Source: Candidatus Parcubacteria bacterium
GTDB taxonomy: Bacteria; Patescibacteriota; Minisyncoccia; Phycocordibacterales; CAIJYI01
Assembly (NCBI GenBank): GCA_026395595.1
Contig: JAPLYL010000005.1
Coordinates: forward strand, 12,853-76,852
Direction of reading: 5' to 3'
Length of the DNA: 64,000 bases
Positions 3,021 through 58,958 of the stretch are shown in pieces. The position numbers and the translations under genes were made by a program. The notes under the pieces were generated by a model. It was given only the letters and a program-made list of their open reading frames with translations. It did no database searches and was not told the DNA's origin. Position 1 is the stretch's first letter. Each line of letters opens with the position of its first letter.

Positions 3021-3074
3021 CACCACAAGAGTACTTCCATTTTAATAGTCGCTTTGCTCCTTTAAAATTAGGTC
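3021..3074 (+). repeat. Copy A of the dispersed 54-bp core repeat (caccacaagagtacttccattttaatagtcgctttgctcctttaaaattaggtc).
   Basis: Near-identical cores at 32879-32932 and 43105-43158, and inverted at 39189-39242. Confidence 0.8.
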
Positions 3075-3170
3075 GCGTGTCTCGTTTCGCCGACCTTGGC
3101 TCACTACGACACTCTCAACCTCTTCGAATCCTCCCGCAAGTAAAGCGGTTCACTTGCTTACCGCCCACAA

Positions 3171-6193: not shown

Positions 6194-6235
6194 AAAACCT
6201 TCAACGTTTAGATATTGAAGGTCTTTAATCGCATT

Positions 6236-6260
6236 GCAAGGTCTTTCCTTAAGGAGGAAG
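6236..6260 (+). repeat. Copy of the short repeat gcaaggtctttccttaaggaggaa, also found at 32825-32848.
   Basis: 24/25 identity between the two sites. At 32.8 kb it forms the left end of a composite repeat element. Confidence 0.6.
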
Positions 6261-10472: not shown

Positions 10473-10544
10473 GGCCCTATCGTCTAACGGTTAGGACGGA
10501 AGCTTTTCAAGCTTTAAATCAGAGTTCGATTCTCTGTAGGGTCA
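10473..10544 (+). tRNA. tRNA-Glu (anticodon TTC)
   Basis: Acceptor GGCCCTA/TAGGGTC, D-region TCGTCTAACGGTTAGGAC, anticodon loop TTTTCAA, T-arm CAGAG-TTCGATT-CTCTG. Confidence 0.85.
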
Positions 10545-10590
10545 CAGCAGAAAACACCGCTTTAATAGGCGGTGTTTTTTGTGGTTTGTA
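10537..10590 (+). repeat. Last 8 nt of tRNA-Glu (3' acceptor strand plus discriminator) plus a terminator hairpin (aacaccgctttaataggcggtgttttttg). This is copy A of a thrice-repeated module.
   Basis: Closely similar sequence at 11491-11541. A related 5' portion occurs at 12323-12395. Confidence 0.7.
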
Positions 10591-11472: not shown

Positions 11473-11541
11473 AGTTCTGAAAGCCACGCAATGGGGTCAC
11501 AACAAAAAGCACCGCTTTAATGGGCGGTGTTTTTTTGTGGG
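11473..11541. repeat. Copy B: agttctgaaagccacgcaatggggtcacaacaaaaagcaccgctttaatgggcggtgttttttt. A tRNA-Glu-3'-end-like motif plus a terminator.
   Basis: Aligns with 10537-10590 at its 3' part and with 12323-12350 at its 5' part. Confidence 0.7.
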
Positions 11542-12322: not shown

Positions 12323-12395
12323 AGTTCTGAAAGCCATGCTATGGGGTCACACTAAAAAATCACTTGGAGGCTTCGCCTCCAAGTGATTTTGTTTT
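12323..12395. repeat. Copy C: agttctgaaagccatgctatggggtcacactaaaaaa followed by a different hairpin terminator (tcacttggaggcttcgcctccaagtga).
   Basis: The 5' half matches copy B. The hairpin has a perfect 11-bp stem. Confidence 0.65.
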
Positions 12396-24004: not shown

Positions 24005-24238
24005 ACCCCATCATAAAAAGTCCGTCGCATTTGCGACGGACTTTTTATGATAATTTCCAATATCAAATATCAAATTTCCAAAAAATGACATCGGTTTTTT
24101 AAAGTCTCTTTTTTAAGTTTTAGATTTTCATTAGGAATTTGATATTGGGAATTTGGAATTTTTATATAGCGTTTCTCTTTTTTTTATGCTAAACTTTCTC
24201 ACAGAGAAAAAGTTTGTTAATGATATTCCATATATTAT

Positions 24239-24333: not shown

Positions 24334-24852
24334 ATGTTTAGACCCCTCAGCGCCAATCCGTTTGAAAAAATTTTAAACAAAGAAAAATATCAAGTCTTTC
24401 TTTTTGCGTGCCCGGCAAACATACCTTTTAGTTTCGCAGCACACCCGTGGTTTGTTATTAATAAAAAAGGAACACTGTCGCGGTGGGAAGTAACATTTCA
24501 ACAAAAAAAGAGGGATCAGAGCTGGGGATACTTAAGCAAAAACTTGTATCCTTTGTTTAGCGGGATTGAAACATTCCCGTTTCAGAGCAATTTTTTTTGG
24601 AAAGGAAAACTGCTGAATTATATCGAGGGAGGAGAAGGGTCAACGGCTCAGTCTATGGCAGAATTTATTGAACATTCGCCGGAAAATTACCCGCACAATC
24701 AAAGGTATTCCTTATCAAAAATAAACTCCAATACATATGCGCAGTGGGTTTTGAATCATTTTAGGGAAACAAAACTCGCTTTACCGTGGAATGCGCTTGG
24801 AAAAAAATCCCTCTATGCGGAGATCTCAATAGATCAAAAGAAAAAGAACTAA
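24334..24852 (+). CDS. Hypothetical protein (172 aa)
   Basis: Intact ORF directly downstream of tRNA-Trp. No recognisable motif. Confidence 0.5.
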   Translation: MFRPLSANPFEKILNKEKYQVFLFACPANIPFSFAAHPWFVINKKGTLSRWEVTFQQKKRDQSWGYLSKNLYPLFSGIETFPFQSNFFWKGKLLNYIEGGEGSTAQSMAEFIEHSPENYPHNQRYSLSKINSNTYAQWVLNHFRETKLALPWNALGKKSLYAEISIDQKKKN

Positions 24853-26028: not shown

Positions 26029-26607
26029 TTATACTGTCTCTTCTATTTTTTTCAGTACTTCGGGAATTCCCATATTCTTTTCGGCGGAGAACGGAATAAA
26101 TGGGACATCGCCGACCTTTGCGATAATTTCTTTCAACTGTTTCGGTCTCGCGGTTTTATTGATACGATCAAATTTATTTCCCACCACCACAAAAGGAACT
26201 TTGCCTTGAGTAAGCGCTTTTATCATTTCAAGATCTCGGTCGCTCGGACCCACATAAGCATCAATCAACACAAAAACGAGAGCAATCGGCGCCCCTGATT
26301 CAAAAAGATACCAAGTAATATGCTTCACGAGTTTTTCTTTTTCCTTATCGCGAACTTGAGCATAACCGTACCCGGGCAAGTCCACGAAATAGAAGGCATC
26401 ATTTACTAGAAAGAAATTTATCTCTCTGGTTTTTCCCGGAGAGGAACTGGAGCGCGCCAAATTTTTGCGAGAAAGAAGCGCATTGATAACGCTTGATTTC
26501 CCCACATTGGAACGCCCCACAAAAGCAAATTGCGGTTTTGAGGTATCATTCAGTATGGAATCCGTCCCCTTAATCCCGCGGGCGAACTCGGCAGATGTTA
26601 TTTTCAT
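26029..26607 (-). CDS. engB: Ribosome biogenesis GTPase EngB (YihA/YsxC)
   Basis: G1 GRSNVGKSS, G3 DLPGYG, G4 NKFD. Confidence 0.88.
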   Translation of the reverse strand: MKITSAEFARGIKGTDSILNDTSKPQFAFVGRSNVGKSSVINALLSRKNLARSSSSPGKTREINFFLVNDAFYFVDLPGYGYAQVRDKEKEKLVKHITWYLFESGAPIALVFVLIDAYVGPSDRDLEMIKALTQGKVPFVVVGNKFDRINKTARPKQLKEIIAKVGDVPFIPFSAEKNMGIPEVLKKIEETV

Positions 26608-32702: not shown

Positions 32703-32824
32703 GGAGAACAAATGTCCGAAGACGAACATACCTAATGAGCCTTTCTTATCCACAGAAAGGCTCATTTTTCATTTTAGATATTTCCCGTTAACAGGTACAA
32801 TAGACATAAGAGATTTCACTCTAT

Positions 32825-32944
32825 GCAAGGTCTTTCCTTAAGGAGGAACGTAGCGAAGCGGAGTGACGGGGAAAGGAGCACCACAGGAGTATTTCCATTT
32901 TTATAGTCGCTCCTCTCCTTAAAAATTAGGTCAGACCTTGGGGC
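32825..32944 (+). repeat. Composite repeat element. The short repeat (gcaaggtct...) and the 54-bp core (32879-32932) are bounded by inverted caaggtct/agaccttg termini.
   Basis: Left end identical to 6236-6260; core as at 3021-3074 and 43105-43158. Confidence 0.75.
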
Positions 32945-39173: not shown

Positions 39174-39303
39174 GTCATTCCGGCCTTAACCTAATTTTTA
39201 ACGACAGGAGGGAGTATAAAAATGGAAATACTCTTGTGGTGTGATCCAGAATCCAGAGTTGGTGCATAAACCCTAGATCCCGGGTCGTTGCCCGGGATGA
39301 CAG
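39174..39303 (-). repeat. Inverted-orientation copy D of the MITE-like element. Core at 39189-39242 with hairpin-containing termini (gtcattccggcc ... cccgggtcgttgcccgggatgacag).
   Basis: Its reverse complement aligns with 43055-43192. Confidence 0.75.
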
Positions 39304-40507: not shown

Positions 40508-40646
40508 AGTGAATATAATATAGCGTAATTTTCAACAAAATGCAAGGGGAAAGGAAAAAAGCTTGCAGAAAAGCCGTTTTTTGCCAGGTTTTAGAGCCAA
40601 AAAGACAAAAGAAAGGCGGAGAAAATCCCCGCCTTTTAGCTCTTAT

Positions 40647-40988
40647 TTACTCATTAACCGCCTCCTGCTCTTTCTTATTCTGTTTAAGGATTTCCGCTTC
40701 TTCCGGAAAGGATTCTGCGAATGCTTTTAATGACTTCGTTTTTCTCTGTTCTCGCCATAGTGTGTTTCCCTGATTCCAAAGAAAAAGAAAAGCGAGAACA
40801 AACATCGCATACTTCGCCGTTTGATTCCACCCGGAAATCAGAGCGATAACAGCAAAAAATAAGTCCGAGACAAAGAGAACAAAAATAAAAAGTAGAATGC
40901 GATCAACCAGAACATCCGCTTTTTTTACAAATTCCTGACGAAGCTCGGAAGCTTTTTTAACCCTGTTTATATAATCGGTGTGTTCCAC
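40647..40988 (-). CDS. Hypothetical membrane protein
   Basis: Two transmembrane helices and a downstream hairpin terminator. Confidence 0.45.
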   Translation of the reverse strand: MEHTDYINRVKKASELRQEFVKKADVLVDRILLFIFVLFVSDLFFAVIALISGWNQTAKYAMFVLAFLFLWNQGNTLWREQRKTKSLKAFAESFPEEAEILKQNKKEQEAVNE

Positions 40989-41116
40989 GTAAAAGTACCT
41001 CTCTTGTTGTTATGAACCAGCTTTAATTATACATATTTTTACAATTATGTCAACAACATAAACCCGCCGCAAGTCAAAACTTGGGCGGGAGTGTCTATAT
41101 GAAAGCATTCAAATTC

Positions 41117-41410
41117 TTATTCTGAATTCCACCATGATACCGCTTTTTTATACAGGTAGTACGGCAAAAACATCATAAAAAGCAGTGCAGCAAGAATGGA
41201 GAGGATAATAAAAAGAGGAGTAACGCTCAAAAAAAGTTCCGACGCCAACCCGACAGAGCACAAGGAAAAAGCCCATAAGACAAAAATGAATAATAAAACG
41301 ACTCCGATTCCAAAAGTGGCAACCATATGCCCGTCAGGATAATTATTCTTTTGTCTGTCGTCTTTTTCCTCACTTAAATCTTTCTCAAGATCATATTCGT
41401 ACTTGCCCAT
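41117..41410 (-). CDS. Hypothetical membrane protein
   Basis: Two transmembrane helices. Confidence 0.45.
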   Translation of the reverse strand: MGKYEYDLEKDLSEEKDDRQKNNYPDGHMVATFGIGVVLLFIFVLWAFSLCSVGLASELFLSVTPLFIILSILAALLFMMFLPYYLYKKAVSWWNSE

Positions 41411-41500
41411 TTCAAAGTGCTCCTTCGTGAAATTCGTCTATATAGACTATATATAAAAAGTGTGTTTTAGTCAATTTCCGCCAAGGTAACTCCTCACTCC

Positions 41501-41582
41501 CGTCATTCCCGCGAAGGCGGGAATCCATGATTTATCGCACCTATTCTGGATCCCCGCATTCGCGAGGATGACGATGAGTTAT
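41501..41582 (+). repeat. Solo copy E of the MITE-like element: both hairpin termini (gtcattcccgcgaaggcgggaatcc ... ccccgcattcgcgaggatgacg) without the 54-bp core.
   Basis: The right terminus is identical to 43171-43192. Confidence 0.7.
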
Positions 41583-41625
41583 TTTAGCAAGTCTTTAAAT
41601 GAGGTTTTTTGAGGGGTGTGAGGAG

Positions 41626-42234
41626 TTACCCGCCAAGAAAACTTTTCCGATGTACGCCTTCCAAAATTCCATGTTTTTCTATCATCTCATAATGTTTTTT
41701 CGTTCCATACCCCTTATGCCGTTCAAAACCATATTCAGGATATTGCTGTGAAAGCGTGATCATTTTCCTGTCGCGAAGAACTTTTGCTCCGATGCTCGCG
41801 AGAGAAATGACCGGCTCAATGTCGTCGCCATGAATAATGGTTTTTTGAAAAAGATATTCTTTCGGCGCGTAAAGCGAGCCGTCCAACAAAACAAGCGTGC
41901 TCTCGGGAGGACAGGCCAATTTTACCAATGCTTCCGCGAGCGCGTTTCGTATAGCAAAAGAAAGTCCGCAATCGTCTATCATTTCAGAAGAAGAAAAAGC
42001 GACGGCGAAAGAAATTTTTTCTTGAGACTTTTCCTTTTCCATTTTCAAAAACCACTCTTCCCTTTTCTCCGCCGTAAGTTTTTTTGAATCCCTTACTCCG
42101 AAAGAAAACTTTTTGAACCGCCGAATATCGCGTAGAGAAAAACAAACCGCCCCCACGGAAACCGGTCCCGCCAAAGGCCCTCGCCCTGCTTCATCTACTC
42201 CAACGACATATTGAATATCTTTCGGTATTCTCAT
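41626..42234 (-). CDS. rnhB: Ribonuclease HII
   Basis: GVDEAGRGPLAGPV active-site motif near the N-terminus. Start moved to MRIPKD. Confidence 0.85.
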   Translation of the reverse strand: MRIPKDIQYVVGVDEAGRGPLAGPVSVGAVCFSLRDIRRFKKFSFGVRDSKKLTAEKREEWFLKMEKEKSQEKISFAVAFSSSEMIDDCGLSFAIRNALAEALVKLACPPESTLVLLDGSLYAPKEYLFQKTIIHGDDIEPVISLASIGAKVLRDRKMITLSQQYPEYGFERHKGYGTKKHYEMIEKHGILEGVHRKSFLGG

Positions 42235-42993: not shown

Positions 42994-43021
42994 ATTCTAC
43001 ATTATATACAGTATTTGTCAA
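42994..43021 (-). promoter_or_regulatory. Candidate promoter TTGACA-16-TAGAAT for the lipoprotein gene
   Basis: Hexamers read on the minus strand about 40 nt upstream of the start. Confidence 0.4.
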
Positions 43022-43054
43022 GTACAAAAACCGTGAATCCAAAAACTCTTCGTT

Positions 43055-43192
43055 CGTCATCCTCGCGAATGCGGGGATCCACGTCGTTAAGCCATACTCT
43101 GGAACACCACAAGAGTATTTCCATTTTTATAGTCGCTTCGCTCCTTAAAAATTAGGTCAAAATTAGGTCGCCCCGCATTCGCGAGGATGACG
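43055..43192 (+). repeat. Full copy C of the MITE-like element: perfect 22-bp terminal inverted repeats (cgtcatcctcgcgaatgcgggg / ccccgcattcgcgaggatgacg) around the 54-bp core.
   Basis: Read directly; related copies as listed. Confidence 0.8.
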
Positions 43193-43280
43193 ATTTTGGG
43201 ATATTTTAGTCCAAGGAAATGAGTTTTTGGATTCACAGCAAAAAACTCCCCAAAACACGGGGAGTATTCTATTGAAAATG

Positions 43281-43832
43281 TTATCTGCACACCCAGACCA
43301 ACCGAGGAAAATACTCTCCGGTCCGAAGATCGTGCAAACCGCCGATATCAGCGTACCCGCAAACGAGCTGACGTTGAGGAACAACGCGATACGTATGCTG
43401 TCCGTAAAATCGCGGGTAGATATTTATGCTAATTCTTGGCTGTGGATTATTATAGACAAACGGTCGATAAGCAAAGTGCGGTGCTGCCTGTGGATTATTA
43501 TAAGCAAACGGTCGATAGCCAAAGTGCGGTGCCGTCTGTGGATTATTATAGGCAAACGGATGATACGCAAAGTTTGCCCTCGGTTGAGGATTATTAAAAG
43601 TAAAATCCCGATAACCAAAACTCTGAGCAGACTGCGGGCTATTAAAGGTAAACGGGCGATAACCAAAATCATGATAATCGAAATTTTTGTAAGAAAAATC
43701 GCGATAAACAAATCCTGAACCCGCCTGCGGATTATTGTAATTGAAACTATTGTACGTAAAAGGGCCGCCGAATCCCGATGCCGCAAAAATCACAGACAAG
43801 ACAAAACACAAAATTTGAAAGAACTTTTTCAT
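43281..43832 (-). CDS. Secreted tandem-repeat protein (F/Y-R-P-F-x-Y-N-N-P-Q repeats)
   Basis: Signal peptide MKKFFQILCFVLSVIFAASG with a GGAGG RBS; about 8 copies of an 11-aa aromatic repeat encoded by 33-bp DNA repeats at 43440-43700. Confidence 0.65.
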   Translation of the reverse strand: MKKFFQILCFVLSVIFAASGFGGPFTYNSFNYNNPQAGSGFVYRDFSYKNFDYHDFGYRPFTFNSPQSAQSFGYRDFTFNNPQPRANFAYHPFAYNNPQTAPHFGYRPFAYNNPQAAPHFAYRPFVYNNPQPRISINIYPRFYGQHTYRVVPQRQLVCGYADIGGLHDLRTGEYFPRLVWVCR

Positions 43833-43944
43833 TATAACCTCCAAAAAACAAAAATGAATATATTGAATCAAAGTACATAGTACTCATTATTATCATTTCT
43901 GTCAAGGCTACACCAAAACCTCCGCAAACGGTATAATAAAACGC

Positions 43945-57113: not shown

Positions 57114-57788
57114 TTATTTTAAAATTTCTCCTACCCCCCCCATAACTTTTTCAGTAGCAATTTTTTTATAGTCTTGAGGAACCGGATTTTCATATCCTTC
57201 AAACAGTTCTTCCGGATAAATCGGTTTTCCGAATCGTATCGTCACGAAACGCTTTCGCAAAAGAAATTCTTTCAAGGTTATATGCAAAATTCCCGAAACG
57301 GCAACTGGAACGATTGGAACATTTGCCGCTTTTGCCAAAGCGACAACACCGCCCTTTGCTTCGGACAAACCCCCATCTTTACTCCTGTGTCCTTCGGGGA
57401 AAATAGCAACATTTTTCCCTTCTTTCAAAAGTTTTATATGCGAAGCGAGCGATTTTTCATAATCTTTAACTCCGAAAACAGCAGAATAAACACCAAAACA
57501 ATGCAAAACTGTTTCCGTGTAAAAAAATGAACCGGATAAGCCTTCTTTATAAAACTTTTCTTCTCGAGCGATAAAATAGAGAGGCAGTATTCTTGAAAAC
57601 AAATTAAAACTCCCGGAAATCAGTAGCCCGTCCCCCTCGCTTACATGATTAGCCGCGAAGATAATACCGTTTTTCAATCCTTTCAAATTTTCTTTTCCGC
57701 AGACCTGAAAATGCAGAAAAAAGGCAAACAGGGGTCTCCCGATAAGCCAAGCAAGACGTTGTGATAGTGAAGCGATAATATGCATCAT
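57114..57788 (-). CDS. plsC: 1-acyl-sn-glycerol-3-phosphate acyltransferase (LPLAT family)
   Basis: HxxxxD motif NHVSEGD and FPEGHRS. Start placed at MMHII because an extended -10 (TGGTATAAT) lies immediately upstream. Confidence 0.75.
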   Translation of the reverse strand: MMHIIASLSQRLAWLIGRPLFAFFLHFQVCGKENLKGLKNGIIFAANHVSEGDGLLISGSFNLFSRILPLYFIAREEKFYKEGLSGSFFYTETVLHCFGVYSAVFGVKDYEKSLASHIKLLKEGKNVAIFPEGHRSKDGGLSEAKGGVVALAKAANVPIVPVAVSGILHITLKEFLLRKRFVTIRFGKPIYPEELFEGYENPVPQDYKKIATEKVMGGVGEILK

Positions 57789-57846
57789 AAAGGTATATCT
57801 ATTATACCAACAAAAAGCACAAAAGCCCATAAGACAGTCTTCTGTC

Positions 57847-58160
57847 TCAACTTCGGTAAACTTCGGAGATTTTTGTCATTACTTTTTCATTCGCGATTTT
57901 TTTATAGTCCTTTTCTGTCGGATTTTCATATCCTTCAAAAAGTTCTTCGGGATAAATCGGTTTTCCAAAACGAACAACGGCTTTGTGTCTTCTCAGTAAA
58001 AAGTCTTTCAATTTTATTCTGTAAAGTCCGGAAATGGCAACAGGAATAATGGGCAGACCTGTTATTTGAGACAATGCTACGATTCCTCCTTTTGCTTCTC
58101 CCATTTTTCCATCTTTGCTTATTCCTCCTTCCGGAAAAAAACCGACATTTCTTCCCTTGC
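57847..58160 (-). pseudogene. Truncated duplicate of the plsC 3' portion (about 105 codons, in frame). It is bounded upstream by the left end of the transposon-like unit.
   Basis: The translation RNVGFFPEGGISKDGKMGEAKGGIVALSQITGLPIIPVAISGL...FGKPIYPEELFEGYENP aligns with plsC residues about 130-230. There is no HxxxxD N-terminal half. Confidence 0.65.
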
Positions 58161-58175
58161 GGGGAATCCGGGACA

Positions 58176-58958
58176 GGAATCCGGGACAGTCACGATTATT
58201 TCATAAAATCTGTGTCATAATATACTAAAACTACATCTTTCTTGGTCTTCCTGAACATCGCTTGGTTGATTCAAGATGATGGTTGGCAATCATCGTATCA
58301 ACCCAAGCATCCCTTCCATAAGGAACCCCTTTATTGATTGAAGTACGAATTAAAGAAATCTCTTCTTCTTTTTCCGGAGTATTTACCCATTGAGAATAAG
58401 CATCGGGAATTGGCGTAGGAGAATCATCTAAGAGTTTTTGTTCTTCCTGTGTTCCACTTACTCGTCGCCATGAGCTTCCCCACCGCCAATCTTCACATCT
58501 TTCTGAAAGCTTTGCACGAACAGGATTTCTTTCCACGTATTTGATTAAAGAGAGAAGGTAACTATCATTATCCACCAAAAAAGATTTGTATCTTCCTTGA
58601 TACAGATGACCTGTCCCAATCGTTTTTGTCTGCACATGATAGTTTCTGGTATGAGAGTTGGAAAGACGATGCATAAAAATCCCCATGTCCCCGTCATTTT
58701 TCGGAGAAAGAACAAAGTGCCAATGATTCGGCATTATTGTGTAAGCTATTATGCTCATACCAGTAAGTTCTTTTGCTTCCGATATTAATTTCTCAAAAAG
58801 TTGGTAATCTTCTTTGGTGCGGAAAATAGTCAAACGTCCATTGGCGCGATTGATGACATGATATACTTCATTGGCGAGATCAACTCGAGCAAGTCTTGGC
58901 ATAAACTTTTATATTATATCATAGATTTCAGAAAAGAACCGTGACTGTCCCGGATTCC
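58176..58958 (-). mobile_element. IS200/IS605-like or RAYT-like transposon unit: a single HUH-Y1 transposase gene flanked by 19-bp inverted repeats (ggaatccgggacagtcacg / cgtgactgtcccggattcc).
   Basis: Inverted repeats at 58176-58194 and 58940-58958. An extra direct copy of ggaatccgggacag lies at 58163-58176. Confidence 0.7.
58231..58902 (-). CDS. HUH-superfamily Y1 transposase (IS200/IS605 TnpA-like / REP-associated tyrosine transposase-like)
   Basis: HuH motif PNHWHFVL and catalytic-Tyr region GHLYQGRYKS; 223 aa. Confidence 0.75.
   Translation of the reverse strand: MPRLARVDLANEVYHVINRANGRLTIFRTKEDYQLFEKLISEAKELTGMSIIAYTIMPNHWHFVLSPKNDGDMGIFMHRLSNSHTRNYHVQTKTIGTGHLYQGRYKSFLVDNDSYLLSLIKYVERNPVRAKLSERCEDWRWGSSWRRVSGTQEEQKLLDDSPTPIPDAYSQWVNTPEKEEEISLIRTSINKGVPYGRDAWVDTMIANHHLESTKRCSGRPRKM

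Follow-up and report, generated by a model that had tools for sequence, protein, structure and literature searches.

Introduction

By the published definition, a REPIN is a convergent doublet of two short palindromes set around a variable spacer. In Neisseria, dRS3 is a 20-bp repeat, ATTCCC(N8)GGGAAT, and NIMEs are RS repeats bracketed by dRS3 repeats in inverted orientation; TIGR arrays, which occur in the candidate phyla radiation (CPR), consist of 36-nt units in regular tandem, with two unpaired spacers (A and B) and box C/D motifs, adjacent to a Tas gene. Here we describe two kinds of small repeat in a 64,000-nt stretch of a Candidatus Parcubacteria genome (assembly GCA_026395595.1, contig JAPLYL010000005.1, positions 12,853 to 76,852; called the window below), which is ~43% G+C with a uniformly negative GC skew. 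One is a doublet of repetitive extragenic palindromic (REP) hairpins with the same convergent arrangement around a variable spacer as REPIN/dRS3, and the other is a structured core of about 55 nt; at 43055-43192 and 39174-39303 (copies C and D) the two lie one within the other.

Genomes of CPR bacteria (Patescibacteria) are usually portrayed as small and compact, which makes the proliferation of non-coding elements in them unexpected. The original prediction for this locus was a single modular miniature inverted-repeat transposable element (MITE) in which hairpin-bearing terminal inverted repeats (TIRs) enclosed the core. We find instead that the hairpins form a REPIN doublet family of their own and that the core lacks TIRs, and we conclude that the locus is probably a nest of two unrelated families of tiny non-coding, presumably non-autonomous DNA elements.

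Core copies in the window

A 32-nt core pattern, searched with up to three mismatches, matched the window exactly four times (at 3021, 32879 and 43105 on the plus strand and at 39241 on the minus strand), with 0 matches expected from 100 dinucleotide shuffles of the window. A covariance model (R1) built from 17 register-homogeneous copies and run over every window position returned the same four copies at 80-85 bits, the next best position scoring 12.9 bits, and a repeat finder recovered the same family at 81-93% identity. All four lie between long open reading frames (ORFs), as had been predicted for a 54-nt core in four copies. Two divergent candidates, at 26184-26243 and 24416-24486, were not counted (E 0.36-0.75; the first is inside ORF 26029-26607).

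Copy C (43105-43159, +), which reads CACCAC...GGTC followed by A, matched without mismatches and scored 84.7 bits; it is T-type and of hairpin subtype 1, as is copy B (32879-32933, +; pattern match, 81.8 bits). Copy A (3021-3075, +), found by the pattern and by the model, is also of subtype 1 and is C-type (GAGTAC...GGTCG), and it is flanked by the terminator-like hairpin of gene 2441-2941 and by a hairpin adjoining tRNA-Val. Copy D (39187-39241, -; two mismatches, 80.0 bits) is T-type, of subtype 2, and has GGTT in place of GGTC as its 3' box. Beside copy C lies an orphan 3' fragment of a second core (43160-43171, +; 13/13 identity with 3064-3076), which together with A43159 reads AAAATTAGGTCGC (43159-43171), the same as the 3' end of copy A. 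This fragment looks like the remnant of a nested core pair of the type seen in L031 and L050 (L numbers denote loci from other genomes), which would have collapsed by recombination between the two 5' boxes; the nesting point proposed for it, CTCCTT^AAAAAT, is intact in L031 and L050.

Copies A and B had been thought to carry different outer modules, with a second short repeat shared with 6236. The repeat is real and 25 nt long, and it belongs to B, not to A. Copy B reads as sitting in another small hairpin module, whose left part (TGCAAGGTCTTTCCTTAAGGAGGAA, 32824-32848, +) was found by repeat search with a 13-nt inverted repeat of 85% identity; the arm caaggtct pairs with agaccttg at 32933-32940, and the uninterrupted left part recurs without a core at 6235-6259 (+; 25/25 identity to 32824-32848, E=1e-8). 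The composite of outer module and core is also present in L072.

Structure and covariation of the core

Cores share a common plan, CA-CCACARGAGTAYTTCC, then ATTTT...AAAAT around a variable insert, then T(A)GGTC and a purine, with a modal length of 50-55 nt. The 5' tail CACCACARGAGUA is almost invariant, with the proviso that the search pattern fixed the 5' box and its conservation is in part ascertainment; the outer helix YUUCC/GGUCR is short and the main hairpin is AU-rich. RNAalifold found no structure on a plain MAFFT alignment of 85 cores because the stem register shifts between subtypes, and for that reason we used a count anchored at the base of the stem and an alignment fitted to the covariance model (136 core copies in 100 sources).

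In the base-anchored count, which is independent of the model, the five basal pairs of the hairpin stem were invariant, while depth 6 (TA 49, CG 32, AT 5) and depth 7 (AT 45, CG 20, TA 18) covaried. The model-fitted alignment, which because of that fitting leans toward the structure, gave agreeing figures: 96.4% of cells were paired versus 80.9% in shuffles, double-sided changes numbered 208 cells versus 54, and pairing fell to 49-71% when partners were slid along the alignment. Many cores add a G+C-rich upper stem with AGUA-like loop caps, whose changes are fully compensatory, and the sole variation in a 5' mini-hairpin is from G-C or A-U to G-U. One well-structured subtype forms a much more stable fold than its shuffles do (z -2.7 to -3.0).

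A further association links the two ends of the hairpin. The Y of GAGTAY (Y18) and the purine after GGTC (R142) were C-G in 66 copies and T-A in 55, with 10 exceptions (mutual information 0.73); this was kept inside each of four hairpin subtypes, and both types were found within single genomes. As modeled, the Y-R pair and the invariant CC/GG would extend the helix to YUUCC[hairpin]U(A)GGUCR and leave the tail CACCACARGAGUA single-stranded. Covariation in the stem and in the Y-R pair thus bears out the earlier claim of a dispersed family under structural selection. The core is a sharp-edged element of 55 nt, distinct from the REP hairpins, with an upper hairpin that varies provided that it pairs.

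Searched against Rfam 15, the core matched no family, and only four tRNAs in the window reached the gathering threshold; a permissive Rfam search around copy C gave only chance hits (E>1). Our literature search found no paper with the core's sequence or describing CPR repeats of such a kind. A reverse-strand mini-ORF (MEILLWC) was rejected, as neither its Shine-Dalgarno spacing nor its length is conserved and in copy A it stops after 6 codons, and so was an internal promoter, the sole match (9/12 in one copy) being within chance. The core's invariant start resembles a tRNA 3' terminus, and in L021 (3830-3860) the start of a core coincides exactly with the 3' end of a tRNA gene, CACCA supplying the discriminator and the CCA, a link that is anecdotal.

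Spread and insertion of the core

Scanning species-representative genomes with a 21-mer of the core yielded at least 117 stretches, in metagenome-assembled genomes (MAGs) of Patescibacteria, in keeping with the expectation of further copies in related CPR genomes. Taxonomy was read from the record titles of the first 80 loci, every one of which named a Patescibacteria or unclassified-bacterium MAG; the hosts include Paceibacteria/Parcubacteria, Nomura-, Taylor- and Kaiserbacteria, Minisyncoccia, and MAGs labelled Saccharibacteria. On viral contigs there were 0 matches to the core.

Presence of the core is patchy among relatives of the window. A second, core-poor set of 80 orthologous loci (887 kb), fetched around the gene adjoining copy D, held four cores in two loci, versus four in the window's 64 kb, and in those relatives whose proteins are 80-92% identical the covariance model found no core. 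In L119 and L120 the gap that holds copy D is ~40 nt long and empty, and over 68 relatives its median of 62 nt is about the window's 180 nt minus the 130-nt composite; empty and filled alleles, for which the original prediction had proposed a search, therefore exist. The D gap is also filled with a core in L096 and L156, there of another subtype or on the opposite strand, so it is a permissive or targeted landing site that was hit independently. A search for filled/empty pairs among the core-selected loci had found one inversion only (L062 vs L095), and it was the orthologous loci that settled the question.

Cores also insert into one another with exact edges and no duplication, as in L031 (CTCCTT/CACCAC...GGTC/AAAAAT) and similarly in L050. 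They stand in tandem in L018, L081 and L102, and in L026 and L047 there is triple nesting, of a REP hairpin, a core, and a third element in the core's own loop. This third small element family (TCTACGAGATCTGTCCACTCATTGGAT...CTCAATGAGTCTTGCG) was seen at 1470-1570 in L026, at 4150-4350 in L047 (- strand), and beside 4790 in L018.

Flank sequence information is gone within 3 nt of each core edge; the 5' flank shows only a weak T-Y-G, not a conserved target of 4-5 nt. Cores are oriented at random with respect to the ORFs beside them (four classes of 25, 23, 17 and 16) and no U-run follows the hairpin, so that the core does not fit a cis-regulatory leader or an intrinsic terminator. Relative to local GC skew the orientations numbered 46 vs 49, with no replication-strand bias. 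With strong complementarity defined as a flank duplex of <=-15 kcal/mol, 29% of 116 copies had strongly complementary flanks, versus 11% of mismatched flank pairs; the hairpin-loop preference is thus real but not universal. Cores split a terminator-like stem in L002, L005, L009 and L089, a forward gtcat hairpin in L036, L048, L117 and L026, and an inverted gtcat hairpin in L001, L016, L031 and copy D of the window, the split hairpin in L001, L016 and L031 reading tggattctgaatcg/core/agttcagaatgac. An exact-protein look-up of an RNase III-like neighbor returned no record.

REPIN-type hairpin doublets

The hairpins once taken for the core's TIRs are an independent REPIN-like family of convergent doublets, separate from the core. 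A doublet is ~70 nt long and consists of two REP hairpins with conserved heads (GTCAT...ATCC) inverted around a short spacer, on the plan YYGTCAT-hairpin-ATC, 7-23 nt of spacer, GAT-hairpin-ATGACRR. Element E (41501-41573, +) shows it uninterrupted, with a forward hairpin at 41502-41525, a 23-nt spacer, and an inverted hairpin at 41549-41572. Its right hairpin is identical to C's right end (24/24) and complementary to C's left end (28/28). E's hairpin ATTCCCGCGAAGGCGGGAATC (41505-41525) agrees with the Neisseria REPIN master ATTCCCGCGCAGGCGGGAATC at 20/21 positions, one loop base differing, and 41505-41524 fits the dRS3 pattern exactly.

In doublet C, the left REP hairpin (43055-43080, +; cGTCAT-CCTCGC-GAAT-GCGGGG-ATCc), located by the repeat finder and the strict search, is followed by a spacer (acgtcgttaagccatactctggaa, 43081-43104, +) which, by comparison with E and 15 doublets elsewhere, ends in the tgga that usually precedes the inverted hairpin. 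The right inverted hairpin (43171-43192, -; repeat finder) is a perfect inverted copy of the left, and perfect 23-nt inverted repeats, at 43054-43076 and 43171-43193, close off the copy on both sides, a small hairpin lying inside each arm. In doublet D the forward REP hairpin (39276-39302, -; strict search) reads tGTCAT-CCCGGG-CAACGA-CCCGGG-ATC. The inverted hairpin is divided into a 5' half (tggattctgg, 39246-39255, -) and a 3' half (ggccggaatgac, 39174-39185, -), each with its partner beyond the core, so that the core interrupts this hairpin's loop. C therefore has the matching termini that had been attributed to both copies, whereas what had been taken for D's right TIR is half a hairpin. 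We read both as invaded doublets, the core having entered the loop of the inverted hairpin in D and standing at the foot of the inverted hairpin in C.

Strict REP searches gave 6 matches in the window, 4 of them REP hairpins, versus ~0.3 in shuffles; the corresponding counts were 39 versus 5 in the core-rich loci and 18 versus 2 in the orthologous loci. All but two of the REP hairpins in core-poor loci stand in convergent doublets with a 7-23 nt spacer, and the core-free close relatives L118, L119 and L122 carry doublets; in all there were 15 cases of a doublet without a core. Conversely, only 16 of the 117 core loci have a gtcat hairpin, and most of the 136 cores have none nearby. The hairpin arms differ in a compensatory way in the window, as had been noticed there, and the same holds for 15 doublets from other genomes.

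The family extends far beyond CPR. The hairpin pattern occurs in at least 120 viral or proviral contigs, and matches to the full doublet were found in Neisseria (>36 places per record), Cupriavidus, Azospirillum, sphingomonads, Legionella and Photobacterium. In the genome of Microcystis phage MaAM05 (MW495066.1), 12 places, including one around 207338-207443, match the CPR/Neisseria-type doublet at ~95% identity. A REP hairpin nearly identical to that of the Neisseria REPIN/dRS3 is shared by CPR, several Proteobacteria and a cyanophage, which makes this a very widespread REP type. Since doublets exist without cores and far outside CPR, E, which does have both termini and no core as first described, is an intact doublet and not an emptied shell.

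E is itself flanked by 13-nt inverted repeats (ggtaactcctcac / gtgaggagttacc). It lies within ~1.07 kb (40551-41636) that is present in the window and absent in close relatives (12-50 nt in L119, L122 and L120), together with ORFs 41117-41410 (-; 97 aa) and 40647-40988 (-; 113 aa), whose translations look hydrophobic.

The Y1 gene

The window encodes one RAYT-like protein of the HUH kind (RAYT, REP-associated tyrosine transposase), at 58231-58902 (-), with a Pfam Y1_Tnp match of E=3.8e-15. Its best NCBIfam model is the REP-associated tyrosine transposase, at 65.7 bits, below the cut-off of 80, and the PDB has a single relative of it, E. coli TnpA-REP (4ER8). At E <=1e-20 the family has 1,691 members; among the 120 best, identity is 62-79% and length nearly always 222-228 aa, and the sources named are CPR taxa or unclassified bacteria only.

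The original prediction had proposed testing this gene's ends against the gtcatcc repeat; they turned out to be distinct conserved repeats, unlike that repeat and unlike the core. Six homologues, seen in 9 further contexts, have one conserved inverted repeat on either side of the gene, GGGGACAG(T/C)CAC(G/C)ATTG..., with short outward reiterations, and the window has a variant of it (GGGGACAGYCACSATTG) at 58163-58224 and 58910-58958, the gene's own end being GGGGACAGTCACG. We did not find this repeat dispersed in the window. Homologues in L099 and L100 have unrelated, genome-specific repeats in the same arrangement, and at both a core lies 230-360 nt upstream in the same orientation, which is weakly suggestive. 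Homologues numbered 4 in core-rich loci versus 0 in core-poor loci, but the contrast is confounded, since all loci of the second set come from one syntenic region. Because the gene has different ends of its own, we cannot tie it to either repeat family. Though the protein is 62-79% conserved, Y1 stands in a different neighborhood in each genome (L198-L208), and L199 and L200 each have two tandem Y1 genes.

Other features of the window

AT-rich palindromic elements occur at 1273-1340 and 24046-24166. Similar AT-rich TIR elements (aatttctaatatctaatt...), unrelated to the core, were found in L118 (7190-7400, 14390-14500 and 5790-5900) and L121 (7820-7950), where they occupy the intergenic gaps that in the window hold cores or doublets (B, D and E), the D gap in both. 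Outside the left end of copy C by 33 nt is an 11/12 sigma-70 match (TTGACA, 16 nt, TAGAAT; 42994-43021, -), and the composite stands between it and a terminator-like hairpin at 43245-43265. Beyond copy C, five tandem 48-nt repeats of 65-100% identity (43437-43676) fall in overlapping ORFs 43227-43718 (+) and 43281-43871 (-) and may encode a repeat protein. Beside Y1, a 54-nt direct repeat (57183-57236 and 57919-57972, 93%) in the adjacent minus-strand ORFs 57114-57830 and 57847-58104 may reflect a partial gene duplication. By a tRNA cluster, terminator-like hairpin modules (GGGTCACA.CA.AAA.CACCGCTTTAAT.GGCGGTGTTTTTT) recur ~1 kb apart at 89-90% identity (10539-10580 and 11494-11535, also 11473-11508 and 12323-12358).

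Discussion

We think it probable that this locus holds two unrelated families, REPIN-type doublets and the 55-nt core, one nested in the other. The core comes and goes as a single unit whose boundaries are exact, and it has neither TIRs nor any apparent target duplication; it settles in intergenic DNA whatever the direction of genes or of replication, and preferentially in the loops of terminator-like stems, REP hairpins and other cores. As to how it moves, we infer that it may be recognized as a folded single strand (extruded or replicative single-stranded DNA, ssDNA) by an enzyme acting in trans. An HUH/Y1-type enzyme would be the most natural candidate, because where a base 5' of the hairpin foot differs between copies, the one at the 3' edge differs with it; a guide and cleavage-site geometry of this sort at IS200/IS605 ends is what Barabas and colleagues reportedly described in 2008 for IS608 TnpA.

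Several observations weigh against this reading. IS200/IS605-type ssDNA transposition shows a replication-strand bias, and the lack of one in the core counts against such a mechanism. No mobilizing enzyme was identified among the genes near cores: clustering all ORFs near them gave housekeeping families only and no recurrent neighbor gene, a search for an autonomous long version (5' box, 0.1-6 kb, 3' box) found only nested or interrupted copies, and neither a core nor a gtcat REP flanks Y1 in the window or its 11 homologues. The structural case has its own weak points in the RNAalifold null, in the leanings of the fitted alignment and the pattern-fixed box, and in the window's own cores, which fold only marginally against shuffles (z ~0 to -1.1); moreover, the Y-R association has just two states per site, and two old sublineages could mimic a base pair. 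Finally, a MITE would not usually have 5' and 3' boxes that stay nearly invariant over many CPR lineages, and a host function could explain them. Box conservation across lineages together with patchy presence is an unusual combination.

That conservation, with a stem that covaries across the same lineages, is what would be expected if the core were a functional structured RNA, or a nucleic-acid site used by the host in many copies, with dispersal secondary; as an RNA, its invariant 13-nt single-stranded 5' tail would serve as a seed or protein-binding platform on a generic hairpin. The mini-hairpin that varies only to G-U, which would be strand-specific, and the folding of the well-structured subtype point the same way. 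We nevertheless regard this as unlikely, given the random orientation to genes, the flank information lost within 3 nt and the lack of a conserved upstream promoter. Copy A sits between two terminator-like hairpins, other copies are broken up by nested and tandem insertions, the orthologous regions of 80 relatives, close ones included, contain almost no core, and no Rfam family matches it. Somewhat more doubtful still is a true REP/RAYT system in CPR, with core and doublets both substrates of the Y1 protein. Its domain matches, its relation to 4ER8, its high conservation and fixed length, as expected of a domesticated gene, the upstream cores in L099 and L100 and the 4-versus-0 contrast would fit, but the NCBIfam score is below cut-off, the contrast is confounded, and Y1 is flanked in the 9 further contexts, the window, L099 and L100 by inverted repeats of its own, never by a gtcat REP or a core, with no dispersal of its flanking repeat in the window.

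The single modular MITE, with hairpin TIRs and core as one unit, E as a core-less derivative and other outer modules on A and B, now seems to us very improbable. C is indeed bounded by perfect 23-nt inverted repeats, and the composite of doublet and core recurs in L001, L016 and L031. Against this, the great majority of core loci lack any gtcat hairpin, doublets occur in genomes and loci without the core, and the position of the core within the doublet varies, being in the inverted loop (D, L001, L016), in the forward loop (L036, L048, L117) or at the foot (C). That the copies arose by local segmental duplication or chance has a single point in its favor, namely that C, D and E all fall in the same 4 kb: shuffles gave 0 matches, and unrelated flanks and the at least 117 further stretches in other genomes refute duplication. 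We would suggest, tentatively and with more doubt than confidence, that the core is more than a selfish MITE and is the cis-acting module of an undescribed system widespread among Patescibacteria, either a new kind of mobile element that targets hairpin loops and is driven by some other enzyme, or a multi-copy structured RNA or ssDNA whose invariant 13-nt tail is read by a conserved host factor.

For an uncultivated group, the core would be a new marker of genome dynamics that is easy to search for, and it is a handle for finding its mobilizing enzyme, possibly a new ssDNA- or hairpin-specific recombinase. The locus also carries a caution, in that apparent elements of "TIR plus core" in MAGs can be nested independent repeats.

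Among described systems, the doublets stand closest to REPIN/dRS3, E and 14 further doublets having the convergent palindromes around a variable spacer, and copies C and D have the architecture of NIMEs, being other repeats bracketed by REP hairpins. REPINs are over-represented, extragenic and multi-copy in their genomes, and go with a single-copy cognate RAYT of Group 2 or 3 that is flanked by the same REPs. The doublets here differ from the Neisseria REPINs in their host, a Patescibacteria MAG, and in having no cognate RAYT flanked by gtcat REPs among the window's Y1 and its 11 homologues. Neisseria REPIN copies are near-identical, whereas here stems vary within a doublet as well as from copy to copy. 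TIGR arrays were considered for the core and rejected, as it is dispersed, 50-57 nt long and self-complementary in its variable part, with no recurrent neighbor gene.

With IS200/IS605 ends, their miniature palindrome-associated derivatives and REPs as RAYT substrates, the core shares asymmetric ends, a hairpin near the 3' end, and the absence of TIRs and of apparent duplication, and by analogy the covarying bases at its hairpin foot and 3' edge may resemble the guide/cleavage pairing of IS608; it differs in lacking strand bias and a conserved target, in a hairpin that varies within a genome, and in that no matching Y1 was found. IS1397 and ISKpn1 enter REP loops, IS110/IS1111 elements enter REPs and attC sites, and class C group II introns follow terminators. 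The preference for palindrome loops and the nesting may be analogous, but those elements are 1-2 kb long and encode their own enzyme, while the core is 55 nt and ~70% of its copies have no flanking palindrome. A classical MITE is a poorer likeness: the core starts with CACCAC and finishes with GGTCR, which are not inverted repeats of each other, the nested insertions of L031 and L050 lack a duplication, and no parent insertion sequence was found. BOX, Correia and ERIC elements, like the core, are small structured repeats of intergenic DNA that occur in many copies and are modular or mosaic in make-up. None of those families is known from outside a single genus or family, Correia has TIRs, and BOX has a fixed module order, whereas the core has no TIRs and its boxes are conserved across many CPR lineages. 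The doublets, then, belong to the known REPIN/dRS3 kind, while the core is apparently undescribed and comes nearest in theme to small structured non-autonomous elements.

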